A stretch of 64,000 nucleotides of DNA. Source: Candidatus Iainarchaeum sp. (GTDB taxonomy: Archaea; Iainarchaeota; Iainarchaeia; Iainarchaeales; JAGVWC01). Below are positions 12,283 through 62,676 of the stretch, in pieces (position 1 is the first letter of the stretch; each line of letters starts with the position of its first letter). Position numbers and translations under genes: made by a program. The notes below the pieces were generated by a model, which made no database searches, was not told the DNA's origin, and worked only from the letters and a program-made list of their open reading frames with translations. Location of the stretch: assembly GCA_018304465.1 (NCBI GenBank), contig JAGVWC010000008.1:108096-172095 (forward strand). The letters are read 5' to 3'.

Positions 12283-12346
12283 GCGACCGACCAAGACCCT
12301 TTTTTTAATGCCTTCGGAGGCCAAAATCAGTACAAAAAGGATCTTT

Positions 12347-15300: not shown

Positions 15301-15505
15301 TTCCAGCCGAATTCGCCGCATCGCCCGCGGAAGCGGCAACACCCAGGAAAACGTGCGCGAATTGCTCAAACAATACAAGCGAATGAAAAACGCGTTCAAA
15401 CAACTCAAAGGACTCGACGAAAAAAAACTACAACAAGGAATGGACATGAAAAAACTGCAGGAAATGTTTTCCCCGAAAAAAAAGAAAAAACTCCGTTTCC
15501 GCTAA
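12347..15505 (+). CDS. srp54: Signal recognition particle protein SRP54 interrupted by an intein (start could also be 12308)
   Basis: N domain, then G-domain P-loop split as GLFGSGK|C...VHN|TTTSGKL; downstream AADTFRPAAMEQLE, DSAGR, TRMDGSAKGG, M domain rich in Met. Extein reading frame preserved. Confidence 0.9.
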   Translation: MGLGDQLRDAMEKLRKSTFSDRDEIKSIVKSMQRALISADVPVKLVLEVSKKIEDAAFSELAPGLNRREHVLKNAYDNLAEILGGQTKPPQNPKRILMVGLFGSGKCVHPLTIVPTANGCVETIQKIYEKNPETELTLEDGFVKELSNPIEVFSLNPLNLKMTRGTVSHIWKLKKDKSLYKVALDNGNNHAVIVTPEHPFFVLENAHIKKTKAEELTAGAFVATPRQLPLPEKQIPIKYLEQNLPQSFQVVCPELINEAKQFMIAKFHSLTNAFNILGEDYAYCTFTANLKRGILRFSTLKKLRNQGFEPNGTQEIKLKEFGTGARTIQVPNQLTTEMAEFMGYFFADGHMRKEYVEITNESNEILDRIEKIGMRLFQKKPCRKQDKRNANVKQILFCSGVLTKALNTVFGFPYFKKSDIIRIPPMILQATKENKYAFLQAYFDCDGYVSKNTRQIEFCTASPLFAEDLRILLTSLEMQPNYSKKKIKDKYYYRVCIKCKDVETFFQRVGSRIPFKQKRLAGMSEIGVGQTLGKNELLHVGQSIRDVRNQQGATIGDIQHHVGSYGIYEQEGLISRNSLKKFIEAITTKTKNKNNQILQNTIQPKKLNELSTAFQEPLGWVNANVFRLKELGFVTYSNGEVQTTELGKQLLEKNQKDEGLELKKLELLAHSDITWMKVKKIELVDNTEYVYDLTVDEYHNFVANQFIVHNTTTSGKLCHYYQKRGKKVGLIAADTFRPAAMEQLEQIAKKINATVILDKNETKPEKIIQQGLQREKEFDLLICDSAGRNALDSELEQEIKTINQTFKPDQAWLVLGADLGQIAGTQAKAFHDAVGVNGVIVTRMDGSAKGGGTLAACRQTNSPVYFIGTGEKTSDLEEFDAVRFLSRIMGYGDLQSLLEKAQEAAQDTDMGLEELLEHDYTLETFYKQLEATNKIGTMDKIMEMVGMKQQLPKEAAEQGQKKLEQFRFMMQSMTKKEKQNPDLINSSRIRRIARGSGNTQENVRELLKQYKRMKNAFKQLKGLDEKKLQQGMDMKKLQEMFSPKKKKKLRFR
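12665..14476 (+). mobile_element. Intein in SRP54 P-loop (604 aa) with LAGLIDADG homing endonuclease domain
   Basis: Starts with Cys after GSGK, ends VHN before Thr+1; internal dodecapeptide motifs MGYFFADGHM and LQAYFDCDGYV. Confidence 0.85.
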
Positions 15506-19202: not shown

Positions 19203-20240
19203 ATGCCCGCACGCAAAATCCCCCAGCAAAAAGCCAATGCCCGGCTACGCAAAAAAATCCCAAAAAACTGGGACAGCCTGGATCCAAAGCATATTCCGGA
19301 CAAACGGCAAAGAGACAAACTCAAACGAATACTGCCCATTCCCGGCAAACTAAAGAAATTTCTGGCCAAGCGAAAAATACGGCCCTTTGCCCCCAAAGAA
19401 CGCGGATTCCGCTTACCCAACCAGGAAATCGGCCCCATCAAACGCGCGACCAACCGAATGCGTTTCATTTACGACCACTACTGGTCCACTTCAGCCGCCG
19501 AAATCGCACAACGCCAACGACTTCAAAAACAGATCCACCAAGGACACAGCCAATTCACGAACCTGACACGATGGGAAAAAAGACGCTTGAACGAATTACT
19601 CCAACAACAAATCGCGGCAATCGGAAGAGAACGCGGACGCTTTCAAAACAAATACAAAGTCGTTGACGATCGGATCGATGACGAAGCCCTGCGACGACTG
19701 GACATCCACCCGGATTATCCCGCGGTTCACTCCCGACGCGCGTACATGGAAAACCTTCGAGACGCGCTTCGAAAACCAGGACAACACGCCGTCGGACTCG
19801 TGGACGTCGACAACTTGTCCCGTGTAAGCACTGAAATCGATCACGCCAAAGCCGGAAAAATCGTCGATATTTTGGCCGAAAGCCTCTCCGAAGTCCTAAA
19901 ACCGCGCCGCGGATTTGCATGCGTGTACGGCGGGGACGAACTCTATATTTATCTTCCGCGAAACCTCCGAGAATCCGAACTGATCATGGACGTACGGTTT
20001 CGCGAAGCATTTGAGCGGAGAATAGAAAAATTCCCCGAACTAAAACGACTCGTCAAAAGAAACAACATTGATTTCACCGGCGTCGTCCAAGACTTTTCAT
20101 CGGACACACCGCGCATCGGATTCCAACCGGACAGCGTTGTGGAAGGACTCAGCCGGCAAGTCAATCGCATCAAGAAAAAGAAAAAACGCAAAGGAATCGT
20201 CGTAAGCCTCAGCAGAAGCGGCCGCGAAGTCAATGTTTAA
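19203..20240 (+). CDS. GGDEF-like nucleotide cyclase palm-domain protein with basic coiled-coil N-terminal region
   Basis: C-terminal half reads RRAYMENLRDAL...HAVGLVDVDNLSRVSTEIDHAKAGKIVDILAESL...RRGFACVYGGDELYIYLP, collinear with the GGDEF fold (NRRxF - LxMxDxDxFKxxND - GHxxGDxVL - RYGGEEF). Confidence 0.55.
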   Translation: MPARKIPQQKANARLRKKIPKNWDSLDPKHIPDKRQRDKLKRILPIPGKLKKFLAKRKIRPFAPKERGFRLPNQEIGPIKRATNRMRFIYDHYWSTSAAEIAQRQRLQKQIHQGHSQFTNLTRWEKRRLNELLQQQIAAIGRERGRFQNKYKVVDDRIDDEALRRLDIHPDYPAVHSRRAYMENLRDALRKPGQHAVGLVDVDNLSRVSTEIDHAKAGKIVDILAESLSEVLKPRRGFACVYGGDELYIYLPRNLRESELIMDVRFREAFERRIEKFPELKRLVKRNNIDFTGVVQDFSSDTPRIGFQPDSVVEGLSRQVNRIKKKKKRKGIVVSLSRSGREVNV

Positions 20241-29546: not shown

Positions 29547-32500
29547 ATGACAATTAAGTTCGTGAAAAAGCGAGACGGCCGCGTAGTCGCCTTTAATCAA
29601 GACACCATTACCAACGCGGTCTGGAAAGCCGCCAAAGCGGTTGGCGGAAAAGACAAATCACTGGCGGTCGAATTATCCAGAAAAGTCGTTCACGAACTCG
29701 AAAAAAAATTCCCCGAAAAACACGTTCCCACCGTGGAAGAAGTCCAGGACGCCGTTGAAAAAGTACTGATTGAACAAGGCCACGCGCGAACCGCGAAAGC
29801 CTACATCATTTACCGCCAGCAACACGCCGAAATCCGGCGCGAAAAAGCCCTGGTGCTTGACAAACAAGAAACCGACGAAGTCGACAAACGATTCGACTTA
29901 AACGCGTTACGCGTCTTAAAAGCGCGTTACCTGCGCAAAGACGCCGCGGGAAAAACCATCGAAACCCCAAAAGAACTCTTCACCCGCGTCGCGGTACACG
30001 TACTGATCCCCGAATTGCTCTACGATCCCCGCGTCTTTGACAAAGAAGCGACCCAAAAAACCCACCCCGTGGAGCCGTTTGACAACGTCGAAAACGAATA
30101 CAAATTATCCATTGGAAAATACCAACTCAACCAATACCATCTTGAAGCCCTAAAACGCGTGTACGATAAGTTTTCCCGCCAAGGCAAAATGAAAATGCCG
30201 TGGGGACGATTCTTAGAAATGCTCAAAAACGGAGAATTCGACCAACACGAAACCAGCGGAGACGAATTCTACAGCCTCATGGTGTACAAAAAATTCATGC
30301 CCAATACCCCTGCGATCGCCAATTTCGGAGCGGTCCTTGGAATGGGCAGCGCCTGTTTTGTTATGGATGTCCGCGACAATATCGAAGGCATCATGGACAC
30401 CCTCAAAAACGCCACCATCGTATTCAAATCCGGCGGCGGCGTCGGATACAATTTCTCGAAACTCCGACCCGAAGGCGATTTCGTTTCCACCACCACCGGC
30501 GCGGCCAGCGGCCCCATCTCGTTTATGGGACTGTTCGACAAAATGACCGAAGTCATCAAACAAGGCGGAATCCGCCGCGGCGCCAACATGGGAATTCTCA
30601 ACTGCCTTGCAGGAGATACCGAGATTTCAACCATTGAAGGACGCAAAAAAATCAAAGAACTGGTTGGAACACAACCCCACCTGTACTGCCTAAATGATAC
30701 CAATGAAGTGCGGATCCGGCAAGCGAACCGTGTCATCCACTCCGGCCAAAAAAAACTGGTTCGAATCACCTTCGACGACGATACCCGCATTGATTGCACG
30801 CCCGATCATCGCATCATGCGCTCGAACGGCCAGTATACACACGCCCAAGACCTCCAGCCCCTTGACAGCGTCATGGCGTTCCATAAGAAAATACTCAACG
30901 ACCGCTACTTTATCGGTTCCACTATGAGCCCACTTTCCCCCGAGCACGTCATCGCCACCGAAACCAACAGCAAAGTACTGATCGAGCAGACCGGCCAAAC
31001 ACGATTGTCCAACGACCTGTGCGTCCACCACAAGGACAACAACCCCCTCAATAACCACCCGAATAACCTGCAAGTGCTTACCATTTCAGAACATGCCAAA
31101 ATACACTCCGATGTCCTGATCGAAAACCAAAAAAGAATCGCGATTTCACGGAAAGGAAAAACGATCGAACAGGTTTATGGCAGCGAAAAAGCGGATGCAT
31201 GGAAACAAAAAATGAGCCAAGCACGACGAAACAAAAAACCTTGGAACGCCGGCTCCGACACAGAAGTCTACAAAGCCCATTACAAAAACGGATTCAAGAA
31301 CCAATACGAATACGCCAACGCCAACCACAAAGTGGTCAAAGTCGAACCACTGGAGGGCATTCACGACATCTACGACATTATCATGGACGATTACCACAAC
31401 TTCGTCGCGAACGGCGTCTTTGTCCACAACTCAAACCACCCGGACATCGAAAAATTCATCACCGCCAAAGAAGGCAACAAACAACTCACCAACTTCAATA
31501 TCTCCGTGCTCATGATGCCGGACTTCTGGGAATACTACAACAAAAACGAACCCTACCCCCTGATCAATCCCCGCGACGGAGAAGTCGTCCGAACCGTGAA
31601 CCCCCGCATGCTCTTTGACATGATTGTCTACCAAGCATGGGAAAGCGCGGAACCCGGCGTGATCTTCTACGACAAAGTCAACGAATACAACCCGTTCTAC
31701 GAACACCTCGGACCCATTGTGACCACGAATCCCTGCGTGACTGGAGACACGCGCGTATCCACCGCAAAAGGATTGGAACGCATCGACCAACTTGCACCCG
31801 GCCTAATTACTGTGGATTCGCGTGTAAACGCGCTTTCAAACAAAAGCGGCTCGAAATCGCTCCAACTTGGAACCCAGCAAGGAACCGCAATTCAGGTCAT
31901 TAAAACTGGAACCAAACCCGTGTTCCGAGTGGAAACCACCAGTGGATTTGAAATCAAAGCAACAGCAGATCACAAGATACTGACCCCCCACGGATGGAAA
32001 GCAGTTGAGCAACTGACCGCTGGAAACGAAATACTGATCCAAAGCGGGGCAGGAAAATTCAATTCAGATTCCGCATTACCTTTTATTGTGGAAAATACCC
32101 CCGTCGGAAAAAACGGAAAAAAGTACCGGAATAACCTTCCCGCAAAATGGAGCTACGATCTCGGCCTCGTTATGGGCTGGATGCTCGGCGACGGATGGCT
32201 CAATGATCAAGCGAACCAAGTGGGGCTCGTATTTTCAAAACCGGACTATGAAGCAAAAGAACAGCTCAAACCTATTTTTGAGCATTATTGTAACCGATCC
32301 ATAAAGCTCACCAACAGAGATCAAAGTGCAGTTCAGATCCGAAGCAACAGCAAGTATGTTACAGAGTACTTCTTCAAACTCGGACTCACTTCCGTCGATA
32401 AGGAAAAAGAAGTTCCAAGCACGATTTACACCGCAACCGAAGAGGCAGTCAGAGGATTCCTCAAAGGATTATTTTCTTCGGATGGAACTATTGCGCACCA

Positions 32501-34148
32501 AAAAGAGAGCAGAAACTATGTACGACTAAATTCCAGTTCACTTACATTACTCAAAGGAGCGCAACGATTGCTTCTCAATCTTGGAATCAAAAGTACGATT
32601 TATGATCGCTCAACCGAACCAAAAACATTCAAATACATCACGGCAAAAAACCAAACTAAGCAATATCAAACCAGTGGCGAAAATTATGAGCTAAATATCA
32701 GCAAAGAAAATTTGCCACGCTTTTTAGACAAAATCGGTTTCATTCAAAGCCGACACACCCAGACGGCAGCAAAAATACAACAACACGAATTTTACACTGA
32801 ATATTTTGTTGAAAAAATAAAAACCATCGAGGCTGCCGGCATCGAAGATGTCTACGATCTTACGGAACCGACCACCCATTCATTTATCGGAAACGGAATA
32901 CTGCTACATAATTGCGGCGAAGTATTGTTGTATCCGAACGAAAGCTGTAACCTTGGAAGCGTCAATGTCTGGACGTTTTTCAAAGAAGACGAAGACGGAA
33001 CCCAATACTTTGACTGGGATGACCTCAAAAAAACCGTGCAAACCGCAAGCAAGTTTCTCGACAACGTCATTGACGTGAACAAGTTTCCATTAAAAGCCAT
33101 CGAAGACATGACCGACGCCACGCGCAAAATCGGACTCGGAGTCATGGGCGTCGCCGACTTGTTTTACGAACTCAAACTCCCCTACAATTCCCCCGAAGCG
33201 CGCGATGCCGCCGAAAAACTCATGGAATTCATCAACTACCACAGCAAAGCCGTTTCCATTGACCTGGCCAAAACCCGCGGACCCATGCCCTACAACGACA
33301 AAAGCTTTTACCTCGAAGGCCGGCTCGCGATTTCAGGACCCGAAACCAAAGAAAAACTCCACTTCAACTGGGACGACATCCGCGAAGGATACAAAAAATT
33401 CGGTTCCCGCAACGGCTACAACACCGTCATCGCGCCCACCGGAAGCATCTCCATGATCGCGGGCTGCAGCTCCGGAATCGAACCCGTGTACTCACTCGTA
33501 TTCGAAAAAAACGTCAAAGTCGGAAGCTTCTACTACGTCGACCCCGTCTTTGAACGCATCATGAAACAAGAAGGACTCCACGACAGCAAACTCATGGAAG
33601 ACGTATCCGAAAACGGCGGAAGCATCCAACACATCCCGTATTTGACCAACGAACAAAAACACGTTTTCGTCACTGCCATGGACATCACCCCTGAAGACCA
33701 CATCCGAATGCTCGCCGCGTTCCAACGCTGGTGCGACTCCAGCATTTCGAAAACCAACAACTTTCCGGCCGACGCGACCGTCGAAGACATGCGCGCCAGT
33801 TACCTGCTCGCATACCAATTGGGATGCAAAGACGTTACGGTTTTCCGCGACAGCTCCATCAAAGCCCAAGTGCTGAACGCACCCAAGAAAAAAACCGTGG
33901 ACACGAGCTCGCTCAAACTCGAGGCCAGCAAAGCCCAAACCATGCAAGCGATTTCGCCTTCACCTGCCCCCATAACCCAAACCGCCAAACCCGCGGAAAC
34001 AAAACAAGTCACGGGCCGAAGCACTTCGACAGTCCAGCAACCCAAAAGCAAATACGAAATCACGAACTGCCCCAACTGCAACTCCGTGACCCAAATCAAA
34101 GAAGGCTGCGTCAACTGCCCCGAATGCGGCTGGGGAATGTGCAACTAA
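29547..34148 (+). CDS. nrdJ: Ribonucleoside-diphosphate/triphosphate reductase, class II (adenosylcobalamin-dependent), with ATP cone, two inteins and C-terminal zinc ribbon
   Basis: ATP cone KFVKKRDGRVVAFNQDTI; catalytic exteins ...GANMGILN|SNHPDIEKF... and ...TTNP|CGEVLLYPNESCNLGS; C-terminal CPNCNS...CVNCPECG. Confidence 0.85.
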   Translation: MTIKFVKKRDGRVVAFNQDTITNAVWKAAKAVGGKDKSLAVELSRKVVHELEKKFPEKHVPTVEEVQDAVEKVLIEQGHARTAKAYIIYRQQHAEIRREKALVLDKQETDEVDKRFDLNALRVLKARYLRKDAAGKTIETPKELFTRVAVHVLIPELLYDPRVFDKEATQKTHPVEPFDNVENEYKLSIGKYQLNQYHLEALKRVYDKFSRQGKMKMPWGRFLEMLKNGEFDQHETSGDEFYSLMVYKKFMPNTPAIANFGAVLGMGSACFVMDVRDNIEGIMDTLKNATIVFKSGGGVGYNFSKLRPEGDFVSTTTGAASGPISFMGLFDKMTEVIKQGGIRRGANMGILNCLAGDTEISTIEGRKKIKELVGTQPHLYCLNDTNEVRIRQANRVIHSGQKKLVRITFDDDTRIDCTPDHRIMRSNGQYTHAQDLQPLDSVMAFHKKILNDRYFIGSTMSPLSPEHVIATETNSKVLIEQTGQTRLSNDLCVHHKDNNPLNNHPNNLQVLTISEHAKIHSDVLIENQKRIAISRKGKTIEQVYGSEKADAWKQKMSQARRNKKPWNAGSDTEVYKAHYKNGFKNQYEYANANHKVVKVEPLEGIHDIYDIIMDDYHNFVANGVFVHNSNHPDIEKFITAKEGNKQLTNFNISVLMMPDFWEYYNKNEPYPLINPRDGEVVRTVNPRMLFDMIVYQAWESAEPGVIFYDKVNEYNPFYEHLGPIVTTNPCVTGDTRVSTAKGLERIDQLAPGLITVDSRVNALSNKSGSKSLQLGTQQGTAIQVIKTGTKPVFRVETTSGFEIKATADHKILTPHGWKAVEQLTAGNEILIQSGAGKFNSDSALPFIVENTPVGKNGKKYRNNLPAKWSYDLGLVMGWMLGDGWLNDQANQVGLVFSKPDYEAKEQLKPIFEHYCNRSIKLTNRDQSAVQIRSNSKYVTEYFFKLGLTSVDKEKEVPSTIYTATEEAVRGFLKGLFSSDGTIAHQKESRNYVRLNSSSLTLLKGAQRLLLNLGIKSTIYDRSTEPKTFKYITAKNQTKQYQTSGENYELNISKENLPRFLDKIGFIQSRHTQTAAKIQQHEFYTEYFVEKIKTIEAAGIEDVYDLTEPTTHSFIGNGILLHNCGEVLLYPNESCNLGSVNVWTFFKEDEDGTQYFDWDDLKKTVQTASKFLDNVIDVNKFPLKAIEDMTDATRKIGLGVMGVADLFYELKLPYNSPEARDAAEKLMEFINYHSKAVSIDLAKTRGPMPYNDKSFYLEGRLAISGPETKEKLHFNWDDIREGYKKFGSRNGYNTVIAPTGSISMIAGCSSGIEPVYSLVFEKNVKVGSFYYVDPVFERIMKQEGLHDSKLMEDVSENGGSIQHIPYLTNEQKHVFVTAMDITPEDHIRMLAAFQRWCDSSISKTNNFPADATVEDMRASYLLAYQLGCKDVTVFRDSSIKAQVLNAPKKKTVDTSSLKLEASKAQTMQAISPSPAPITQTAKPAETKQVTGRSTSTVQQPKSKYEITNCPNCNSVTQIKEGCVNCPECGWGMCN
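30603..31430 (+). mobile_element. Intein 1 in RNR (276 aa) carrying HNH endonuclease motif
   Basis: Begins CLAGDTEI, ends VFVHN before Ser+1; internal HHKDNNPLNNHPNNLQVLTISEHAKIH HNH box. Confidence 0.8.
31734..32912 (+). mobile_element. Intein 2 in RNR (393 aa) with LAGLIDADG homing endonuclease domain
   Basis: Begins CVTGDTRV, ends ILLHN before Cys+1 (CGEV); motifs MGWMLGDGWL and LKGLFSSDGTI. Confidence 0.85.
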
Positions 34149-37096: not shown

Positions 37097-38944
37097 ATGC
37101 AATACGCCCACCAAACCGGGGAAGACCTCTTAGAAAAAGTCCGCAACAGCCATTTTTCGTCGGAAATACCGCTGATTCGAAAAGCGCTTGAAAAAAACAA
37201 ACCTCTTCCCGAACACACCCGAACGCTTGCCATCGACACGGCAAGCACGTTGACCCAATTTGGATTCGGAAAAACGGCCGTCTGCGCGGCACTGCTTCAA
37301 TTCCACGATCTTGAAACCCTCAAAGGCGAATTCGAATCCGAAATACTGGAACTGGCCCACGGACTGCAAAAAATCGAGCGCGTGAAAGCCAAGAACCGGG
37401 GAAAACTATCCCCGGAATCACTGCAAAAAATCATTCTGGCCTTGTCACCGGATCCCCAAATCATCATCATCTGGATCTGCAAAAAACTCGTGGAACTGAG
37501 GTTTTTGTCCGAACAACCCAAAGACGAACAACTTCCGCTGGCCGAAGACGTGCTCAATCAATGGGTCCCCGTTATTCACAAACTCGGGCTGCACAAAATC
37601 CGGTGGGAAATCGAAGATCTGGCCATGAAAAAAATCCTGCCCAAAGAATACAAAGCCATCAAAGAATACCTCAACGACAAGCGAAACACGCGACAAGAAA
37701 AAATGCGCGAACTCGTCGAAAAACTCCGATCCGCGCTACAAAAAGCCCAACTTGAAGCTGTGGTATTCGGACGCGTCAAAAACTTTTACCGCATTTACAA
37801 AAAAATGAACGAACAAAAACGAAACCTGAAAGACATCCACGATTTGATCGGCGCGCGCGTCATCTGCAACAGCGTAAACGAGTGCTACGAAACACTTGCC
37901 GTGATCCAGAACTCCTTCAAACTCGAAACCCAAGGATTCGATGATTACATCCAAAAACCCAAAAAAACAAAGTACCAATCCATTCACGTCGACCTGGACT
38001 GGAAAGGAATACCATCCGAAATACAGATTCGAACCTGGGAGATGCACAAAGAAGCCGAAGAAGGCGTCGCCGCGCACTGGGAATACAAACAATACAAAAA
38101 AGACCCGACGTTTGACCGGCACTTAACGATTGCCAAACAACTGGCGGAATGGTTCGACCAAGTACACCACAAAAGCATCATGGACTCGCTGAACCTAAAA
38201 TTCGAAAAAAACAAAATCTTCGTTTTAACCCCAAAAAGCGAACTCGTGGAGCTGCCCGAAAAAGCCACCCCCGTCGATTTTGCGTTTGCCGTGCACACAG
38301 AACTCGGATACAAATGCGAAAAAGCCCGCGTGAACGGAAAAATCGTCCCGCTCGATTACCAACTCCAAAACGCGGACAGCGTCGAAATCATCACCAGCGA
38401 AAAGCAAATTCCAAAACAACACTGGTTAACGTTTGTTCAAACCGAAAAAGCGAAACAAAAAATCCGAACCAAACTGAACATCGTTCCGACAAAACCCGAA
38501 AAAGAAAAAAAAACCGGAATCGTAAAAGCGACGTTCCGGAAAAACGCGCAGTTCCTTCCCGCCAAATGCTGCTCGCCGATTCCGGGCGATGAAATCGTCG
38601 GGCACAAAACCACGAAACGAAAAATAAAAATCCACCGGATCGACTGCCCCAATGCCCAGCGGATACCCGAAGACGAGCGACTGACACTATCCAACGCATC
38701 GTTCACTCAAAAAGAATTCGAAACCACGCTGCGAATCAACGTGCACAACCAGCCGGGAGTACTCTCCGAAATACTGGACGCCATCGGCAAACACGATACC
38801 AAAATCATTTCCACCGAAGCCGTTACGCACGCGCACTCAATCACATGCCGATTCCGCATCAAAACAAAAAACAGGAAAACCTTCGAGCAAACCGCCGAAC
38901 GCGTACAGAAAATCAAAGGGATTATCGACGTACAACGCGGATGA
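37097..38944 (+). CDS. Long RelA/SpoT homolog (partly degenerate HD, synthetase, TGS, ACT)
   Basis: AALLQFHDLE HD remnant; synthetase DLIGARVICNS...YQSIHVDL...EIQIRTWEMHKEAEEGVAAHWEYK; TGS IFVLTPKSELVELPEKATPVDFAFAVHTELG; C-terminal ACT-like. Confidence 0.75.
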   Translation: MQYAHQTGEDLLEKVRNSHFSSEIPLIRKALEKNKPLPEHTRTLAIDTASTLTQFGFGKTAVCAALLQFHDLETLKGEFESEILELAHGLQKIERVKAKNRGKLSPESLQKIILALSPDPQIIIIWICKKLVELRFLSEQPKDEQLPLAEDVLNQWVPVIHKLGLHKIRWEIEDLAMKKILPKEYKAIKEYLNDKRNTRQEKMRELVEKLRSALQKAQLEAVVFGRVKNFYRIYKKMNEQKRNLKDIHDLIGARVICNSVNECYETLAVIQNSFKLETQGFDDYIQKPKKTKYQSIHVDLDWKGIPSEIQIRTWEMHKEAEEGVAAHWEYKQYKKDPTFDRHLTIAKQLAEWFDQVHHKSIMDSLNLKFEKNKIFVLTPKSELVELPEKATPVDFAFAVHTELGYKCEKARVNGKIVPLDYQLQNADSVEIITSEKQIPKQHWLTFVQTEKAKQKIRTKLNIVPTKPEKEKKTGIVKATFRKNAQFLPAKCCSPIPGDEIVGHKTTKRKIKIHRIDCPNAQRIPEDERLTLSNASFTQKEFETTLRINVHNQPGVLSEILDAIGKHDTKIISTEAVTHAHSITCRFRIKTKNRKTFEQTAERVQKIKGIIDVQRG

Positions 38945-40342: not shown

Positions 40343-40564
40343 TTTTCGATTAATGAAAAAAAACCAACTGCCGCGCACCCAAAAATTCGACGTCATCGTA
40401 CGCGGCGAAGACCTGATTACACGCCTTAATCGCGGAGGATACTCGGTAAAAACCCAGTCTTACGGAGACTACCGAATGCTACCGACCGCCAAAAACAACG
40501 CATAAACCCTTAGTTGAGAGGCTGGGATTTAAAATCGTTCTTGCGCCCAATTTTAACGGTAAAA

Positions 40565-42058
40565 ATGCCCGAAAAAAACGATTTGGTTGAAAGCAAACTA
40601 GGTCATTTGAAAACGCTGCGGGAAAACGGAATCAACCCCTATCCGTATCACTTCGAAGCTAACGCCACGTCTCAACAGCTTCACCAGAAATACGAATCCT
40701 TGGCCGCAGCCGAAGAAACCCAAGAAACCACTTGCATCAGCGGCAGAATCAAAATCATCCGAAGCTTCGGAAAACTCGTTTTTCTTGACGTATGGGACCA
40801 CACCGGAAAAATACAAGTACAAGCCAAAGAAGACGAAACCGACAAAGAAAGCCTTTTTATCGTTGAAAACCTTGATCCCGGCGACTGGATCGGAATCGAA
40901 GGACGCATCATCAAAACCAAACGCGGAGAACTCACGGTGCTCGCCAAAAAATTCACGGTCTTATCCAAAAGCATCCAGCCGCTTCCCGAAAAATGGCACG
41001 GCCTCACCGACACCGAAACGCGCTATCGACAACGACACCTCGACCTGATCATGAACCCCGAAGTCAAACGCGTATTCGAAAAACGCAGCCAAATCATCAA
41101 AACCGTCCGCGAATACCTGGACCAACATGGATTCGTCGAAGTCGAAATCCCGTCGCTCCAACCGGTTTACGGAGGCGCGAACGCCAAACCATTCAAAACG
41201 CTTTCCAACGCCCTCAAACAAGAGTTATACCTCTCGATCTCGCCGGAACTCTACCTCAAACGCCTCATCGTCGGGGGATTCGACAAAGTGTATTTTTTGG
41301 GCAAGAGTTTTCGCAACGAAGACATCGACAAAACCCATAACCCCGAATTCACGATCATGGAATGTTACGCGGCCAATTGGGATTACAACGACATGATGAA
41401 ATTGTTCGAGGACATGTACAATTACGTGGCCAAAAAAGTGACGGGAACCACCCAAATCGAATACGACGGAACCATCGTCGATCTCAAAGCACCTTGGCGA
41501 CGACTTCCCGTGAAACAAGGCCTCAAAGAATACGCCAACATCGACGTTGACAAACTCAAAGACGCGGAACTGATCAAACTCGTCAAACACCATGCACCCG
41601 ATTACGACGGTCCCCAAATCAGAGGACTACTCATCGCCGAATTATTCGAAGCCCTCGTCGAAGAAAAACTTGGAAAACAACCCGTGTTCATCACGGACTA
41701 CCCTGCCGAAACTACGCCGCTATGCAAAGCCCATCGCGACAATCCCGAACTGATCGAACGATTCGAACCGCTTGTCAACGGATGGGAAGCGGGCAACGCA
41801 TACAGCGAACTCAACGACCCCGTGCTCCAGCGAAAACTGCTTGAACAACAAGCCTCGGAAGGACGCGCCGGCGGAACCGCCGAACCCGTCGACGAAGACT
41901 TCATCAACGCCATCGAATACGGAATGCCCCCAACCGGCGGACTCGGCGTCGGAATCGACCGCATGGTCATGCTGTTGACCGGACAATCCACCATCAAAGA
42001 CGTCGTGCTCTGGCCGCTGATGAAAAACAAGGAAGAAAAAAAGCCAGAAACGAAATAA
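40565..42058 (+). CDS. lysS: Lysyl-tRNA synthetase, class II
   Basis: Anticodon-binding OB (KLVFLDVWDHTGKIQV), motif 2 FRNEDIDKTHNPEFTIMECY, motif 3 GGLGVGIDRMVMLLTG. Confidence 0.8.
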   Translation: MPEKNDLVESKLGHLKTLRENGINPYPYHFEANATSQQLHQKYESLAAAEETQETTCISGRIKIIRSFGKLVFLDVWDHTGKIQVQAKEDETDKESLFIVENLDPGDWIGIEGRIIKTKRGELTVLAKKFTVLSKSIQPLPEKWHGLTDTETRYRQRHLDLIMNPEVKRVFEKRSQIIKTVREYLDQHGFVEVEIPSLQPVYGGANAKPFKTLSNALKQELYLSISPELYLKRLIVGGFDKVYFLGKSFRNEDIDKTHNPEFTIMECYAANWDYNDMMKLFEDMYNYVAKKVTGTTQIEYDGTIVDLKAPWRRLPVKQGLKEYANIDVDKLKDAELIKLVKHHAPDYDGPQIRGLLIAELFEALVEEKLGKQPVFITDYPAETTPLCKAHRDNPELIERFEPLVNGWEAGNAYSELNDPVLQRKLLEQQASEGRAGGTAEPVDEDFINAIEYGMPPTGGLGVGIDRMVMLLTGQSTIKDVVLWPLMKNKEEKKPETK

Positions 42059-46232: not shown

Positions 46233-47015
46233 TTAAAAGCGTTGAGTCCTAAGACTCAGTTTTTCCGCAGTTTTGGCTAAACGCCACTGTTTGACAGGGT
46301 GCAAAAATAAGTGATTTTCCGCCAAAAAAACAATATCAGAAAAACGTTCCACTTGAATATACGCCGAAACGTTATTTGGATCCAAATAAGGACCGTTCAT
46401 TTTCAGTCCGAAAGCCGATTCGAAAAGACTTTTCACTTCACGAATAAACGGGATACATTTCATTCGAATTTTGACGCGAGGGGCAGATTTAAATCCACCT
46501 TCTACGGCACGTGTGTCTCCCTCCGCGTCAAATAAACCCCGCAAAAACCACCGTTGTAATTCCACTGGAGCGTTCCAGACCACAGCAGGGGCATGTAATG
46601 AATTCGTCTTTGAACCGCACGGAAGTTCAAAAAGAACAGTCAAAAATAAATACACCCGCTTACTTGTCGGGTTGATGTACAGCGTTCGTTCCCCTTTACT
46701 TAAACGCTCATAGCGAATAGGGGGACAATCGCCAAACAAATCAGAATACAACGATTGAATAAACATCATCTGAGACTCAAATTCGTCCGCGATGATCATC
46801 TTGTACTCCCGACGGCGGGAAACCAAATATGAACGCTCGACATTCTTTAATCCACCGTCACCGAAGAAATAACCAGCAAAATACGCGAGTTTTGGCGAAA
46901 GCTCCGTTGGGCAGTTTGCAAATTCATGACTTGGTAAAGAATCAATCGGACTTGCGGGACAGAAAGGATCAACCAATTCGGATTCCGAAATAAAGCCATA
47001 AGCTGTTCGAAGCAT
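46233..47015 (-). CDS. Free-standing LAGLIDADG homing endonuclease
   Basis: Two dodecapeptide motifs LAYFAGYFFGDGG and LRGLFDAEGD; no intein splice boxes at the termini. Confidence 0.75.
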   Translation of the reverse strand: MLRTAYGFISESELVDPFCPASPIDSLPSHEFANCPTELSPKLAYFAGYFFGDGGLKNVERSYLVSRRREYKMIIADEFESQMMFIQSLYSDLFGDCPPIRYERLSKGERTLYINPTSKRVYLFLTVLFELPCGSKTNSLHAPAVVWNAPVELQRWFLRGLFDAEGDTRAVEGGFKSAPRVKIRMKCIPFIREVKSLFESAFGLKMNGPYLDPNNVSAYIQVERFSDIVFLAENHLFLHPVKQWRLAKTAEKLSLRTQRF

Positions 47016-54222: not shown

Positions 54223-56331
54223 TCATAGGCTATCAAAAGGACTCTTCACTTTTTTCAGTTCTTCCGTTCGCACCGTGGTGTAAATCTGGGTGGTGTTCAG
54301 ATTTGCATGACCCAACAATTCTTGGATCTTTCGAATACTTTCTCCCGCTTCCAGCAAATGCGTGGCGTATGAATTGTGTACTACAAAACCATCCGCAAAC
54401 AGATTTTCTGTTCCAGCCACGGTAAAATCATACACTGGGACGGTATCCCGCACTGGCAGGATCTTGGTTACTTCCATCCATTTGTAGTTCTCTCCCAATA
54501 ATGAACGAATCGCATTGCGTTCTTCCAAAAAATCCGGTTCTTTTTCGATTTCGTGCAAAATTTTCGCGACCGTCTCTCGGACCGGAATGATTTTTCCCGT
54601 GTAGCGCTTCAAATGCTTAATTCCTTGCCGGGTTTGCAAACGATAAATAAATCCCCGCTGTTGCAGCAGTTTTGGGTACATCTTTTTCAAAATCAAATGT
54701 GCCGGGATCCACTCTCCCACGGAATCGTTTTCAATTCGAAGTTTTTTTTGGGTTGGGATCAGCAACTCAAACAACACTTGGTCCGGACGGCGAAGAATGA
54801 ATAATTCAAAAATTGTGTGCGAAATAATTCGGCCTTGAGGCAACTTCACTTTTCGATCTCGCTGATGAAAATACGAATTGATTCCAAGTCGCAGCAAAAG
54901 AACCTGCACATCCTTTAGCAATTCTTTACTAGTAGAAAAAAAGCGCGGAACCCCCTCGTTCCCGTCTGCGTCATACAAACCTGCCAGAAATTCGCATACT
55001 TCTTCAGTGCTTGCCGAGAATAACTCCATTGGTATCCGCTTCGTAGGCGCCCGCCTGTCCATATCCAGTAACTGACAGGTGTGCACCAAATCAACAGAAT
55101 AATACGCCAACTCAAACGAGTTTCTTCCATGCGTCGGGTGAATAAACGGTCGCTTTCCAAACTGTTGCTCCAAAAGCGATTGGTAAAACTGCAAAAACGA
55201 AAGGTTCTTATCACAAATCACAACCCCACGCCGACTATCGCTTATGGTTCCGTCTCCTAACGCATATCCCACAAAACGCCACCAGGCCGGAGATGCACGC
55301 CGGGTTTCCGCAATCGTAACTTTTTTGGGGCCCAGCACAAAATCGCCGGGCTTTAAATCTTTGGCACATGCTTCCCCAAGGCCATACACAGTCGCTACAA
55401 AAAAACGATGCTCTGGCGTGCATGTTAACAAATAACCACCCGCATTGACTTCGAGAAGCCCTTCTGCATACTGCATGAACGCACCCACCAACGGGGCATT
55501 GATCACGTGTTGTGTGTTCCATTCAAAGCTTCGAACCAAGGTGCCTTTTCCGGAAAACAAAGCCTGCGCGGAAACAATTCCATTCGAAGTAAAAATCCGA
55601 GTATTCGCTTCTACACAGTGACGCATGCTGTGCGGCGTCACTTCTTTTTGAATTCCCGCCTTGGCCGCCGCTTTGCGAATAATACGCTGAATGGTATCCA
55701 CCGAAATGGATGTCCCGGTAGTTTTTTTGGAGAACACAAACTCGCTTGAAACTTTTTTTCGCTTCAAATAGCGCTTCAGATCCGACACCCAATTCTTGGA
55801 CAAGATAATGATACGGTCCTTGTTTCCTTTGCCGCCTTTCACTCGGCCGATAAACTCGCTTAACTCGAGGTCCGCGACCTTGAGTTTGACGGCTTCGCTT
55901 ACGCGCACGCCGGACGAATACAAAAATTCGACAATCAAACGATTACGCCCCTTCTTGGTCGCTTTGATCAACGCTTTTACTTCGGCCTTGGTGAGAACGG
56001 TCGGGAGCTTTTTGGCTTTTTTCATGGCGCGCACGTCTTCCATGATTTTTAATTTTAAAAAATTTCCAAAAAAGAATTTGAGCGCCGAGTGCGCCAATGC
56101 CAAACTCGAATTCGAAATATTTTCTTTCTCCTTGCGGTTCGCGATGTATCCCACGATATCCGCTTTTTCGGTTTCTTCCACGGGCTTTTGGAGCGACTTC
56201 AAAAAATCCGAAACCAAAAACAGATATGTTTTGATCGTCTGCTTCGAGTACCCCGTGACGACCAGTTCCTGGCGAAAACGCGTCAGCATTTCCTGGTTAT
56301 GCGGCAAAATTTCCGAATCCGTTTCGCTCAT
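54223..56331 (-). CDS. xerA: XerA/XerC-like tyrosine recombinase interrupted by an intein
   Basis: N-terminal core-binding domain; catalytic exteins ...TPHSMRH|SYATHLLEAGESIRKIQELLGHANLNTTQIYT (R-H-R-H-Y boxes) flank a 415-aa insertion. Confidence 0.8.
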   Translation of the reverse strand: MSETDSEILPHNQEMLTRFRQELVVTGYSKQTIKTYLFLVSDFLKSLQKPVEETEKADIVGYIANRKEKENISNSSLALAHSALKFFFGNFLKLKIMEDVRAMKKAKKLPTVLTKAEVKALIKATKKGRNRLIVEFLYSSGVRVSEAVKLKVADLELSEFIGRVKGGKGNKDRIIILSKNWVSDLKRYLKRKKVSSEFVFSKKTTGTSISVDTIQRIIRKAAAKAGIQKEVTPHSMRHCVEANTRIFTSNGIVSAQALFSGKGTLVRSFEWNTQHVINAPLVGAFMQYAEGLLEVNAGGYLLTCTPEHRFFVATVYGLGEACAKDLKPGDFVLGPKKVTIAETRRASPAWWRFVGYALGDGTISDSRRGVVICDKNLSFLQFYQSLLEQQFGKRPFIHPTHGRNSFELAYYSVDLVHTCQLLDMDRRAPTKRIPMELFSASTEEVCEFLAGLYDADGNEGVPRFFSTSKELLKDVQVLLLRLGINSYFHQRDRKVKLPQGRIISHTIFELFILRRPDQVLFELLIPTQKKLRIENDSVGEWIPAHLILKKMYPKLLQQRGFIYRLQTRQGIKHLKRYTGKIIPVRETVAKILHEIEKEPDFLEERNAIRSLLGENYKWMEVTKILPVRDTVPVYDFTVAGTENLFADGFVVHNSYATHLLEAGESIRKIQELLGHANLNTTQIYTTVRTEELKKVKSPFDSL
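54373..55617 (-). mobile_element. Intein in tyrosine recombinase (415 aa) with LAGLIDADG domain
   Basis: Starts CVEANTRI after MRH, ends VVHN before Ser+1; motifs FVGYALGDGTIS and LAGLYDADGNEG. Confidence 0.8.
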
Positions 56332-59090: not shown

Positions 59091-60017
59091 ATGCCGACCT
59101 TGAAAATTGGTTCCCTTACTCTAGATAATCAGTTACTTCTGGCGCCGATGTTCAAAGTCACCGACCCGGCGTTTCGACTCTTATGTCGAGAACAAGGCGC
59201 CGCCCTGACGTTTACAGAAATGACTCATTCCGAGGCAATTCTTCGAAACCCTCGTGTGGCCGCCCAAGCAAGCCACACCACCCCCTCGGATCATCCGTTT
59301 GGAATTCAAGTTTCCTCCGCGCAACCCGACCGGTTAATTCAAACCATTCAACTGTTGGAAGAAAAAGCAGACCTTTTTGACATCAACTTAGGATGCCCCT
59401 CGGACCGAACCCGCGAAAGCGGAATTGGAAGCGCTTTGCTTGACCACCCCGATCGGGTTGAAGCCCTCATCCACGCCATGCGCAAAGCCACCCAAAAACC
59501 CATCACCGCCAAAATTCGCCTGCCCAGCCGTCCTCAAGACGCCCTCGATATTGCAAAACGGATCGAAAACGCCGGTGCGGATGGCCTTACCGTGCATGCC
59601 CGAACGGTTTTACAAGGCCACTCAGGCCCCGTGGATTTAGACCTCGTCGCCAAAGTCAAAGAAACGCTTTCCATTCCCGTCATTAATAATGGCGGCGTGT
59701 GGAACCAAGAAACCTATGAATACGTGCTGCACACTACCCATTGCGACGGGGTCATGCTTGCGCGCTCCGCCATTGGAAACCCGGGCATCTTTGCCCAAGT
59801 CCAAGGAAAACCCGGAATTTCACCCGTCGATGGCCTGGTCCGCTATCTTGACCATTGCGAGACCTACGGTTTTCTTCACGTGGGCCGCATCAAAACCAAC
59901 TGCCTGCATTTCCTGAGTGCAATCCCAAAAACGAAAAAGGCGGATTTTTCAAAAGCCAAAACCATCACGGAACTCAAAGCGTTGGCCGCGGAAGTAAAAG
60001 CCAACCAAACCAACTAA
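59091..60017 (+). CDS. dus: tRNA-dihydrouridine synthase
   Basis: LLLAPMFKVTDPAFRLLCREQGAALTFTEM and TIM-barrel FMN-binding pattern. Confidence 0.75.
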   Translation: MPTLKIGSLTLDNQLLLAPMFKVTDPAFRLLCREQGAALTFTEMTHSEAILRNPRVAAQASHTTPSDHPFGIQVSSAQPDRLIQTIQLLEEKADLFDINLGCPSDRTRESGIGSALLDHPDRVEALIHAMRKATQKPITAKIRLPSRPQDALDIAKRIENAGADGLTVHARTVLQGHSGPVDLDLVAKVKETLSIPVINNGGVWNQETYEYVLHTTHCDGVMLARSAIGNPGIFAQVQGKPGISPVDGLVRYLDHCETYGFLHVGRIKTNCLHFLSAIPKTKKADFSKAKTITELKALAAEVKANQTN

Positions 60018-60035: not shown

Positions 60036-62180
60036 TTGAAACATATGTGCGGAATCATCGGTGTCTTTAACGATCCCTTCGCCGGAAAAAAACTGGTGGT
60101 CGGAATGCAAACCATTCAACACCGCGGCACCGACCAGTACGGGCTGTACGCCGGAACCGTGACCTACCACGCCAAAAAACCCGTTTTTCCAGTCAAAAAA
60201 ACCCAAAACGCCATCGGGCACTGTCTACACTCCATCGTATCCTATCAAGAACAACCTTTGGTTGGAAAAGGCGCCTTGGTGGCCAACTGCGAGCTCTACA
60301 ACTGGAAAGAACTCGCCAAAAAACACAAAATTGACGCGCAAAACGACGCCGAGCTGTTGTTCAAACTCCTGGAAAAAACGCCTTCCAATCGCATGGAAAC
60401 CCTTTTGGCTGAACTAGACGGCGATTACGCCTTTGCCTATTGGAAAGAAAACAGGGTTTTTTTGTGCCGCGACCCCGTCGGCGTCAAACCCATCTGGTAT
60501 GCCCTTGAAAACAACCGCTTCGGTTTTGCCTCCGAAGCCAAAGCCCTCTACGCCATGGGATTTTCAAAACCCGTTGAACAAAACCCACGGCACCTGTTTT
60601 GCTACGACTTGATTCATCACCGGCTTGACAACCGTTCCTGGTTTGAGTTTACTTCCCCCGTTGCCTTCACGCCGGATACGGAACACACACTATTAGAATT
60701 TGAAAAAATATTTTTGAACGCAGTCAAAAAACGCATCCCAGCCAAGCCCTTCGGAATCCTATTCTCGGGCGGCATCGATTCTGTGATCATAGCCGCCGCC
60801 TGCAAACGCCTCGGCCACACCCCTGCCTTGTTTTTTGGGTGCATTTCCGACCTCGATCTTCCCGAACCCAGCGACCAAAAAGCCGCGGAAGACGCGGCCG
60901 CGGAACTCGGGTTGACGTTGGAAGTTCACTCCGTTTCGCTCTCCAAGGCCCCCGCCTTGTTTGCCCGTTTGGTTTCTCTGATTGAATCCACCGACCCCGT
61001 CAAAATCGCGGTCGCCACCGGCATCGATCTGGCCAGCCAAAAAGCGCATGAAAAAGGATGCAAAGTCGTATTTTCCGGGCTTGGCTCCGACGAACTCTTC
61101 GGCGGATACGCCCGCCAAGAAAAAAGCCCCCAAAACGCATACCTTGACAGCATTTCGTATCTACGCAAAGCATACGAAAAAGACCTTTATCGAGACGATG
61201 TCTTGACCATGCACCACCACGTCGAATTACGCGTTCCCTACTATGACCGCGAACTAATTCCGTTTGCCCTGCAACTTCCCGACACCCTCAAAATTTCCGC
61301 CCCCCATCGAAAAGTCATTCTTCGAAAACTGGCGCACCACTGGAAACTATCTCCCGCCATTGAAAACCGCCCTAAAAAAGCCGGACAATACGGAAGCAAC
61401 GCCGACAAAACCCTTGAAAAAATCGCCAAAAAAGAAAAATACCCAAGCAAATCCGCCTACCTTGCGTCGCTTGGACCCAAAACTAATATTCCGGTGGCCG
61501 CGCTCATCAGCGGCGGAAAAGATTCCTGGCTTGCCGCAACCATCCTCGCCGAACGCAACTATCCCTTGTCCTGTTTGGTAAGCCTTCAAAGCCAAAATCC
61601 CGATTCCTACATGTTTCACACGCCCAATATTTCCGCAGTCAAGCTCCAGGCTCGCGCAAGCCGCATTCCCTTAGTGGTACAGACGACTCCTGGAACCAAG
61701 GAAAAAGAACTCGACGACCTACGAGTTGCCTTGGTGAAAGCCAAAGAAAAATACGGCATCCAAGGCGTGGTCAACGGAGCCCTTTACTCTAATTATCAAC
61801 GAAGTCGTATTGAAAAAATCTGCGACGAACTTGGGCTTAAGAGCTTTTCCCCGCTTTGGCACGTCGACCAAACCCAAGAACTAGTGGAACTGTTATCTCG
61901 TTCGTTTTCCCTTGTTTTTTCCAGTATTGCCTGTCAAGGATTAACCCGTGATTGGCTTGGAAAACCCTTGGACCCCGCCAAAATAGCGGAACTTTCCAAC
62001 CTCCACAAAAAATTAGGGGTCAATGTCGCGGGAGAAGGCGGCGAATACGAAAGTCTGGTGCTGGACTGCCCTCTTTTTTCCAAAAAAATCCGGGTGGACC
62101 AGGCGACGATTACCATGCAAAACGAAAACACCGGACGATATGACATCCAAAAAGCGGTTCTTATTCCGAAAAAACATTAA
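60036..62180 (+). CDS. Three-domain fusion: class II glutamine amidotransferase + asparagine-synthetase-type PP-loop domain + Dph6/MJ0570-type diphthine-ammonia ligase domain
   Basis: MCGIIG nucleophile, CELYNW, DGDYAFAYW, RDPVGVKPIWY; FGILFSGGIDSVIIAAA and SGLGSDELFGGY; then ISGGKDS, SYMFHTPNIS, SPLWH, EGGEYESLVLDCPLF. Confidence 0.75.
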   Translation: MKHMCGIIGVFNDPFAGKKLVVGMQTIQHRGTDQYGLYAGTVTYHAKKPVFPVKKTQNAIGHCLHSIVSYQEQPLVGKGALVANCELYNWKELAKKHKIDAQNDAELLFKLLEKTPSNRMETLLAELDGDYAFAYWKENRVFLCRDPVGVKPIWYALENNRFGFASEAKALYAMGFSKPVEQNPRHLFCYDLIHHRLDNRSWFEFTSPVAFTPDTEHTLLEFEKIFLNAVKKRIPAKPFGILFSGGIDSVIIAAACKRLGHTPALFFGCISDLDLPEPSDQKAAEDAAAELGLTLEVHSVSLSKAPALFARLVSLIESTDPVKIAVATGIDLASQKAHEKGCKVVFSGLGSDELFGGYARQEKSPQNAYLDSISYLRKAYEKDLYRDDVLTMHHHVELRVPYYDRELIPFALQLPDTLKISAPHRKVILRKLAHHWKLSPAIENRPKKAGQYGSNADKTLEKIAKKEKYPSKSAYLASLGPKTNIPVAALISGGKDSWLAATILAERNYPLSCLVSLQSQNPDSYMFHTPNISAVKLQARASRIPLVVQTTPGTKEKELDDLRVALVKAKEKYGIQGVVNGALYSNYQRSRIEKICDELGLKSFSPLWHVDQTQELVELLSRSFSLVFSSIACQGLTRDWLGKPLDPAKIAELSNLHKKLGVNVAGEGGEYESLVLDCPLFSKKIRVDQATITMQNENTGRYDIQKAVLIPKKH

Positions 62181-62676
62181 TATCCGGAAACGACACCCGA
62201 TCACCGATTTTCAGCCCTCTTTCATCCGCCGCGAACGCATTGATTTCGAGTACGAACGACGCCGGTGCCGGCGAAGCAAAACTGGGGCAATGGATTTCTT
62301 CACACGGAGGAACATTTTTCGAAATTCCAACAATCTTTTTCTCGGAATTGATCCAAACGATATCCAACGGAAACCGCATGTTTTTCATCCAAAACAACCG
62401 GGCCTGATCTGGAACCGGAAACACAAACAACATCGAATGGTTGGGGGCCAAAGACGTTCGATCCATCAAACCGCGTTCCCTGGCCAAAGGGGATGCCGCT
62501 ACTTCCGCGTCAAAACAGCCTTTCGATTCAAAACACACGGGAAGTCCCTTGGGTGCGGGGGTATTTGAAACAGAAGTAACGCCAAAAGAAGTGATGGAAA
62601 CGTCAAAATAGAGGAATAAGCTCGCTACCACAATTCCGAGCACCAAGACCAAAACGGCCATCGCGGGGCGTTGCAT
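62161..62676 (-). CDS. DUF192/COG1430 family protein with signal peptide
   Basis: MKNMRFPLDIVWINSEKKIVGISKNVPPC signature. Confidence 0.6.
   Translation of the reverse strand: MQRPAMAVLVLVLGIVVASLFLYFDVSITSFGVTSVSNTPAPKGLPVCFESKGCFDAEVAASPLARERGLMDRTSLAPNHSMLFVFPVPDQARLFWMKNMRFPLDIVWINSEKKIVGISKNVPPCEEIHCPSFASPAPASFVLEINAFAADERGLKIGDRVSFPDINVFSE

Follow-up and report, generated by a model that had tools for sequence, protein, structure and literature searches.

The window analysed here is a stretch of 64,000 nucleotides from the archaeon Candidatus Iainarchaeum sp. (contig JAGVWC010000008.1 of assembly GCA_018304465.1, positions 108,096 to 172,095). It contains a gene in which a glutamine amidotransferase (GAT), an ATP pyrophosphatase (PP-loop) domain of the asparagine synthetase (AsnB) type and a diphthine-ammonia ligase (Dph6) are encoded in one chain. 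Diphthamide on elongation factor 2 (EF-2) protects the translational reading frame. Characterized Dph6 homologues adenylate the diphthine carboxylate on EF-2, after which ammonia replaces AMP. To our knowledge, this last step of diphthamide synthesis is the only one with an unsettled nitrogen source.

Layout and structure of the fusion protein

The gene occupies a single open reading frame (ORF) on the forward strand at 60036..62180, which encodes 714 amino acids (aa) from a TTG codon and has zero internal stops. In class II (Ntn) amidotransferases, the nucleophile is the Cys directly after the removed initiator Met. Inspection of the DNA revealed an in-frame ATG at 60045 that gives the N-terminus MCGIIG, and 99% of the homologues start with MCG or MCS. 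Because the Ntn class needs Cys first after Met and the homologues begin in this way, the real coding sequence is, on the evidence of the DNA and of full-length alignment to more than 120 homologues, 60045..62180 on the forward strand (711 aa plus stop), and the TTG at 60036 is not the true start. The initial annotation had described one polypeptide with a glutaminase, an Asn_synthase PP-loop domain and a complete Dph6 domain. Pfam and NCBIfam profiles bore this out with all of the quoted motifs present, and no hidden stop or frameshift was found in 60036..62180.

All of the following features lie on the forward strand, with residues numbered from the ATG. The class II amidotransferase domain (aa 1-205, 60045..60659) was assigned by Pfam GATase_7/GATase_6, with GATase_7 matching aa 68-169 (7e-21). 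It carries the Cys2 nucleophile codon at 60048-60050, identified from the Ntn requirement and homologue conservation, and a GHCLHS motif (aa 58-63, 60216..60233) delimited in the family alignment. The AsnB-type PP-loop ATP pyrophosphatase (synthetase) domain follows (aa 206-452, 60660..61400), in which Pfam Asn_synthase matched aa 219-361 (1e-40) plus a second stretch. This domain contains the first PP-loop SGGIDS (aa 241-246, 60765-60782) and the SGLGSDELFGGY motif at aa 344-355, with SGLGSDE at 61074-61094. A helical linker (aa 453-483, 61401..61493), delimited by predicted helices and by the C-termini of standalone relatives, leads to the Dph6 domain of the MJ0570/DUF71 type (aa 484-711, 61494..62177), which was assigned by PF01902 and TIGR03679, with Diphthami_syn_2 matching aa 484-705 (1e-59). 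Its own PP-loop SGGKDS (aa 489-494) lies at 61509-61526 and its EGGEYES motif (aa 664-670) at 62034-62054. The GC content is even over all three modules (0.49-0.53).

An AlphaFold2 model computed from a 74-sequence alignment reached a mean predicted local distance difference test score (pLDDT) of 93.7 and a predicted template modelling score (pTM) of 0.91 for the whole protein. In this model, the three domains are one confidently packed rigid body, not loosely tethered units. The linker was modelled as helices at 453-463 and 469-474 with pLDDT 87-96, and the same segment forms the natural C-terminus in standalone relatives. Among the Foldseek matches, no solved structure covered all three domains.

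Recurrence of the fusion and its Dph6 domain

The initial annotation took the architecture to be undescribed, which was wrong. The same GAT-II, Asn_synthase and DUF71 fusion, with the three domains in identical order, was presented together with the same hypothesis in the text and Fig. 2C of an earlier bioinformatic study (de Crécy-Lagard et al. 2012, Biol Direct 7:32, PMC3541065). That study found an AsnB domain, which it divides into GAT-II and Asn_synthase PP-loop portions, ahead of DUF71/Dph6 in Methanohalophilus mahii, Methanosalsum zhilinae and 'Ca. Nanosalinarum J07AB56', and proposed that glutamine hydrolysis delivers NH3 to both PP-loop domains, the role being to supply glutamine-derived NH3 for diphthine amidation. 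A reviewer of the study asked which PP-loop consumes the ammonia and what the AsnB-like PP-loop does; in the literature after 2012, we found no paper or experiment that answers this question. Both the architecture and the glutamine hypothesis are already published, and the window protein adds one member and no new concept. The atypical residues, the variants with a dead or missing GAT and the standalone copies described below go beyond the 2012 paper and are modest additions. Compared with the fusions of 2012, the window copy belongs to a DPANN-type archaeon, with Ca. Diapherotrites and Micrarchaeota as its nearest named relatives and a best match of 60% identity.

Sought in other DPANN members and archaea, as the initial annotation had proposed, the same fusion was present at full length in over 120 homologues and in ~66 of 80 genomic loci. 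The homologues came from a search of a 5.8-billion-protein collection, which yielded at least 120 proteins (a lower bound on the homologue total) of ~700 aa covering 98-100% of the query at 42-60% identity. They were labelled 'diphthine--ammonia ligase' by NCBI and 'asparagine synthase' by JGI, and their sources were Diapherotrites, Micrarchaeota, Woesearchaeota and Nanoarchaeota. The loci came from a scan of one genome per GTDB species that gave 592 confirmed related stretches, the best 80 of which served for all conservation counts over loci. An uninterrupted, essentially full-length fusion ORF was found in ~66/80, and the remaining loci held GAT-less, shortened, contig-end-cut or N-terminally truncated ORFs. 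Fusion loci occurred in DPANN, Methanosarcinales, ANME-1/Methanophagales, Syntrophoarchaeum, metagenome-assembled genomes (MAGs) of Halobacteria and one Methanomicrobiales MAG. A cultured carrier, Methanolobus bombayensis DSM 7082, was among them, and its protein aligned end to end with the window protein (42% over residues 1-710). Homology over the full length extended to members from Methanosarcinales, Nanohaloarchaea and DPANN.

The possibility that adjacent asnB and dph6 genes had been joined through a sequencing or assembly error was dropped as so improbable as to be negligible, because the architecture recurs widely. It would have to account for the same unbroken arrangement in more than 120 independent proteins and ~66/80 loci, the cultured Methanolobus included, for a conserved and structured linker and for a GC content that stays even over the junction. 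No support for such an error was found for this protein; errors of this kind do occur elsewhere in metagenome data (L016, P0164, P0001).

At L016 (40-3153), an upstream DRG-like GTPase runs into the fusion to give one 1037-aa ORF without the TGS end of the GTPase, and in P0164 an SMC_N fragment stands ahead of the fusion; both extensions are likely frameshift or chimera artefacts. P0001 (626 aa), from a different source, is 96-97% identical to the window protein but lacks ~72 internal residues (aa 254-325) and shows scattered substitutions, Asp101 to Tyr among them; it probably derives from a close relative whose assembly is error-prone. At L047 (contig DATGWN010000068.1), in a MAG that bears the label 'Acidobacteriota bacterium', the fusion gene is full-length and of archaeal type, and its contig is probably an archaeal one that was mis-binned.

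The C-terminal domain passed the Dph6 profiles, in keeping with its initial assignment, scoring 251.2 bits with TIGR03679 (Dph6_archaeal) against a curated cut-off of 197.3 and 202 bits with PF01902 against a cut-off of 23.2. The domain was 38-43% identical to PH1257 and PF0828, and Foldseek aligned the model to the PF0828-ATP complex (3rk1) at 43% identity with a TM-score of 0.95 and a root-mean-square deviation of 1.5 Å. The C-terminal 228 aa of the window protein share with PF0828 (3RK0/3RK1/3RJZ) and PH1257 (2D13) the fold, the PP-loop, the EGGE-x-E-[ST] signature and the predicted EF-2-contact residues. S489, G491, K492 and D493 of this second PP-loop were invariant in the 74 and 80 homologues in which Dph6 residues were scored, and E664, G665, G666, E667 and E669 of EGGEYES were present in 80/80 loci. 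The signature EGGE-x-E-[ST] is of the Dph6 type and differs from ENGEFH of the B12-salvage subfamily; the Dph6 motif EGGE/D-x-E188-T/S has Glu where DUF71-B12 has His (PMC3541065).

Alignment mapping located the PF0828 ATP-contact residues S12-D16, H48 and T189 in the window Dph6 domain, together with all of the Dph6-specific residues S44, Y45, E78, Y103, Q104, A149, E183, E186 and E188. The first six of the latter correspond to S521, Y522, E555, Y584, Q585 and A629 of the window protein. The 2012 study placed S44, Y45, H48, E78, Y103, Q104, E183, E186 and E188 at the EF-2/diphthine interface (PMC3541065), and the residues that it singled out showed no variation or at least 90% conservation among the fused proteins (74-80 homologues). 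A predicted Dph6 function of the C-terminal domain is well supported by these residues and by the model. The supplementary table of the same study lists one DUF71 homologue each in M. mahii and M. zhilinae (PMC3541065), and the fused protein is therefore the only Dph6 candidate there. Standalone archaeal Dph6 and yeast Dph6 (YLR143W) differ from the fusion in having no N-terminal amidotransferase and in using free ammonium, and the yeast protein additionally carries two C-terminal RidA domains.

The glutaminase and AsnB-type domains

Residues of the AsnB module were counted in an alignment of 120 fused homologues and numbered after E. coli AsnB, using a sequence that was verified over residues 18-436 against a PDB alignment. 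In the glutaminase domain, the equivalents of Cys1 (99%), Arg30 (100%), Asn74 (100%), Glu76 (99%) and Asp98 (100%) were kept, and Cys2, Asn81, Glu83 and Asp101 of the window protein correspond to Cys1, Asn74, Glu76 and Asp98. Judging from these residues, the glutaminase of the window protein is probably active. Glutamine-dependent amidation of diphthine is a reasonable proposal because Cys1, Asn74, Glu76 and Asp98 are all kept, and we regard such a dependence as plausible. Gly75, which forms the oxyanion hole with Asn74, was replaced by Cys in 110/120, and GHCLHS occupies the place of AHERLS in E. coli AsnB. The family version of this motif is GH[CA]LHS, and the same pattern was found in 62/80 loci. 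The window protein represents the majority form, with an apparently competent glutaminase.

Residues 1-480 share the two-domain fold of E. coli AsnB (1CT9) and human asparagine synthetase (ASNS; 6GQ3/8SUE) with TM-scores of 0.77-0.80 at 25% identity, the Foldseek match to 1ct9 reaching 0.80. Cys1, Asn74, Glu76, Asp98, the PP-loop, Gly349, Asp351, Glu352, Arg387 and Lys449 are common to all of them. The first PP-loop SGGxDS was kept in 80/80 loci, the Lys449 equivalent (Lys444 of the query) in 116/120, and the equivalents of Asp384, Arg387 and Lys429 over the 120 fused homologues. G347, D349, E350 and R383 of the query were conserved in 80/80, 80/80 (D/E), 73/80 and 75/80 loci. The human residues G365, D367, E368 and R403, equivalent to G349, D351, E352 and R387 of E. 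coli, hold the aspartate moiety of β-aspartyl-AMP (PMC10245805). A simply degenerate synthetase site was rejected, because these aspartate-holding residues, Lys449 and the PP-loop are conserved.

The same module departs from AsnB and ASNS at a set of positions, with Leu for Arg49, Cys for Gly75, Lys for Thr322, Ala or Gly for Arg324, Leu for Glu348, and Tyr or Gly for Lys376. It scored 249-251 bits with TIGR01536, under the AsnB equivalog cut-off of 267.1. The Thr-Thr-Ile-Arg (TTIR) motif of AsnB is changed to Val-Lys-Val-Gly/Ala, with Lys in place of Thr322 in 120/120; the Glu348 position is Leu in 111/120 (SGLGSEE), the window protein included, whereas the Methanolobus protein has Ser. Work by Boehlein et al. 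in 1997 and Meyer et al. in 2010 is said to have found Glu348 and the Arg of TTIR required for β-aspartyl-AMP formation in AsnB. Human ASNS Glu364, the equivalent of E. coli Glu348, lines the end of the ammonia tunnel beside the synthetase site (PMC10245805). Where canonical AsnB has its last ~90 residues, the fusion has the linker and Dph6 instead. Many polar residues are invariant and specific to the family, including the Lys at the Thr322 position and the AAQYGS motif. By these sequence features, the AsnB module is an atypical clade. Its PP-loop domain keeps an ATP site and an amino-acid-type pocket without residues reportedly required for β-aspartyl-AMP formation, and the module is also without the canonical anchor for glutamine.

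Relatives of the module were sought by an exhaustive HMMER search with residues 1-478 against 1.84 billion cluster representatives, which returned 354 proteins at E < 1e-30. In the best 150 of these, fused proteins (650-750 aa) were mixed with proteins of 440-520 aa that stop ~30 residues past AAQYGS, where the fusion linker starts. P0138, P0139 and P0143 are complete standalone GAT plus AsnB-like genes, with unrelated genes behind them and no dph6 in the vicinity; they share the Lys322/Gly324/Leu348 signature and score a sub-threshold 245-251 bits with TIGR01536. As further candidates for standalone AsnB-like genes, P0124 was rejected, being cut by a contig end, and P0166 was set aside, as it looks frameshifted. 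In a rough neighbour-joining tree of the module, built without support values and indicative only, fused and unfused forms interleave in the clade, and Gln takes the Glu348 position in an outer clade made up of standalone forms only.

The complete standalone genes away from dph6 are what would be expected if the fusion held two independent enzymes on one chain with no channelling between them, the AsnB module making asparagine or another small amide with ammonia that it obtains itself from glutamine, Dph6 using free ammonium, and the fusion coupling only expression, stoichiometry or oligomerization. We consider this somewhat unlikely. The conserved PP-loop, Gly349, Asp351, Glu352, Arg387 and Lys449 would fit a working synthetase, and the TIGR01536 score falls just ~16 bits short of the cut-off; it is nevertheless under a curated AsnB threshold, with Leu replacing Glu348 in 111/120 and TTIR reading V-K-V-G. 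Ammonium serves Dph6 of yeast and archaea as nitrogen source (background cited in PMC3541065), and in DPANN genome papers 'AsnB' is one of the handful of amino-acid genes that are present and are found expressed (PMC10266531, PMC11606122), both of which speak for separate activities. On the other side, the pTM of 0.91 points to a fixed, co-evolved interface and not to beads on a string, the interleaving of fused and unfused forms is typical for proteins working together, and the AsnB PP-loop stays with Dph6 even after the glutaminase has been lost.

Such losses took two forms. Variants with an AsnB PP-loop and Dph6 and no GAT, spanning 480-520 aa, were found in four of the loci (L071 7977-9515, L078 7926-9380, L079 4636-6207 and L080 4462-5910) and among the protein representatives (P0203 from Micrarchaeota, and P0261), and no GAT-II sequence was detected within ±8 kb of them. 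A subclade with a degenerate GAT (L055, L061-L067, L070 and L074) comprised ANME-1/Methanophagales, Halobacteria MAGs, Methanospirareceae and some Methanosarcinales and Methanomicrobiales. In this subclade, the second position holds Cys, Ser, Thr, Gly or Tyr (MGRITG, MYRITG, MSRITG), with G/Y/S/T and a dead glutaminase in L061-L067. Asn74 is changed to Asp, Asp98 to Ser, and H-x-L-H-S is lost, the degenerate stretch being the first ~110 codons of the match; the start codons were confirmed by in-frame stops upstream. Beta-lactam and carbapenam synthetases (1JGT, 1Q15) offer a comparison for the dead-GAT subclade, having the AsnB fold, a dead N-terminal GAT-like domain and a remodelled Glu348 position. 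They differ in showing 17-18% identity, in forming an amide intramolecularly and in having no Dph6 domain, and the window protein, unlike them, keeps its Cys nucleophile.

All variants retained the AsnB PP-loop (80/80), Gly347/Gly349 (80/80), Lys449 and all Dph6 residues, and no GAT-Dph6 fusion without the middle domain occurred among 150 representatives. Read from these alignments, the constant core of the family is the AsnB-type PP-loop plus Dph6, and some lineages can do without the glutaminase. Since the PP-loop domain is the constant partner and the glutaminase can be dispensed with, the middle domain is more than a passive linker. A shortened 622-aa fusion in Woesearchaeota (L076 and L077, 8001-9869) has SGNDS as its first PP-loop and has lost Arg387 and Lys429, which suggests that the middle domain is decaying in this lineage.

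The constancy of the core could also mean that the AsnB-like PP-loop is a dedicated, non-asparagine partner of Dph6, a second ATP site required for EF-2 modification (to dock the substrate, to sense ATP allosterically or to carry out a second adenylation, for example), with the glutaminase optional. Retention of the PP-loop and Dph6 with an active, dead or missing GAT, with SGGxDS and Gly347/Gly349 in 80/80 and Lys449 kept, agrees with this idea, as do the absence of middle-domain-free GAT-Dph6 fusions among the 150 representatives, the family-specific invariant polar residues and the rigid interdomain geometry. However, diphthine offers only one carboxylate for amidation, other archaea and yeast manage with a standalone Dph6, the standalone AsnB-like copies imply an activity without fused Dph6, and no direct evidence for a second reaction was found. 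We rate this alternative as improbable. A related view, which we consider somewhat unlikely, is that the AsnB-like module is a distinct archaeal amidotransferase clade, not an asparagine synthetase, with a PP-loop that would be an obligate partner of Dph6, fused or in trans. Its signature would be Leu for Arg49, Lys for Thr322, Leu for Glu348 and the AAQYGS motif.

The interpretation that we favour, with about an even chance of being right, is that the protein is the diphthamide synthetase of the cell and that ammonia from its glutaminase passes through an AsnB-type tunnel to the first PP-loop, to the docked Dph6 domain or to both. The glutaminase would hydrolyse an amide donor, most likely glutamine, bound without an Arg49 anchor. 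The released ammonia would then enter an AsnB-type internal tunnel whose exit residue, Glu348 in AsnB, is a hydrophobic Leu, and would serve the PP-loop site of the AsnB-like domain and/or travel further to the rigidly docked Dph6 site. There, diphthine on EF-2 would be adenylated and amidated, and diphthamide formation would thus be independent of free ammonium.

Several observations weigh against this diphthamide synthetase model. Arg49 (H-x-R-x-S), which we take to be the anchor of the glutamine α-carboxylate in AsnB (1CT9), is replaced by Leu in 120/120 (Leu61 in the query), with His at the next position in 119/120. Given this family-wide loss of Arg49, either an unusual amide donor is used or the donor is bound in an unusual way. 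The AsnB tunnel ends at the AsnB PP-loop site, so that delivery of ammonia to Dph6 is not obvious. With the four aspartate-holding residues (Gly349, Asp351, Glu352 and Arg387 in E. coli numbering) conserved, a reaction like that of asparagine synthetase is possible. Genuine standalone modules of the same clade that are not adjacent to dph6 indicate that the module can act alone. Because the fusions with a dead or absent GAT keep both PP-loops, the fusion is not kept in being by the supply of glutamine. Finally, no experimental work on any fusion member was found in the literature, the 2012 bioinformatic paper being the only treatment.

A fused glutaminase would make clear how archaea that are ammonium-poor or host-dependent obtain the nitrogen for the final step in making diphthamide. 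If the module is a distinct clade whose PP-loop is an obligate partner of Dph6, DPANN and several euryarchaeal lineages would make diphthamide on an enzyme with two ATP sites and an atypically bound amide donor, and the 'AsnB' of DPANN would be an enzyme of translation-factor modification and not of amino-acid biosynthesis. The DPANN 'AsnB' genes of the genome papers mentioned above (PMC10266531, PMC11606122) may belong to the fusion family, and these results suggest that 'AsnB' calls in DPANN metabolic reconstructions deserve caution. The loss of Arg49, the hydrophobic tunnel exit, the variants with a dead or absent glutaminase and the standalone orthologues sharpen the question raised by the 2012 reviewer as to which PP-loop uses the ammonia.

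Neighbouring genes and other features of the window

Upstream of the fusion gene and in the same direction lies a gene for a tRNA-dihydrouridine synthase (Dus; 59091..60017, forward strand, Pfam Dus 2e-63), separated by a 27-nt gap, and co-transcription of the two is possible. A convergent DUF192 gene lies downstream (62161..62676, reverse strand, Pfam DUF192 4e-31), with a 20-nt overlap between its 3' end and the end of the fusion coding sequence. A Pfam scan of the ~40 largest ORFs of the 64-kb window detected no dph2, dph5 or EF-2 gene. Across the 80 loci, no recurrent dph gene was found beside the fusion; archaeal dph genes are generally unlinked (PMC3541065). The commonest upstream neighbour was a DRG-like GTPase gene (16/80), and a small cytidylyltransferase gene lay downstream in 14/80, both reflecting synteny within subclades only.

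Archaeal markers in the window include S19e, eIF-6, GGGP synthase, RadA and RPA. A class II aminoacyl-tRNA synthetase gene (40514-42058, forward strand) was considered as an asparaginyl- or aspartyl-tRNA synthetase, either of which would have had a bearing on asparagine metabolism, and rejected as uninformative, as it encodes a bacterial-type class II lysyl-tRNA synthetase (NF001756, 631 bits). The usual archaeal lysyl-tRNA synthetase belongs to class I. A 615-aa RelA/SpoT homologue with HD, RelA_SpoT, TGS and ACT domains (37097-38944, forward strand) is likewise present in this archaeal, probably DPANN, genome, and a weak GGDEF-like ORF was seen at 19203-20240.

The window is rich in inteins. 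The SRP54 gene (12308-15505, forward strand, 1065 aa) carries one intein with LAGLIDADG, and the gene for the large subunit of ribonucleotide reductase (29547-34148, forward strand, 1533 aa) carries two, one with HNH and one with LAGLIDADG. A free-standing LAGLIDADG ORF lies at 46233-47015 on the reverse strand. A LAGLIDADG intein also splits a 702-aa tyrosine recombinase of the XerC/D type (54223-56331, reverse strand; Phage_integrase plus a SAM-like N-terminal domain), an unusual intein host.

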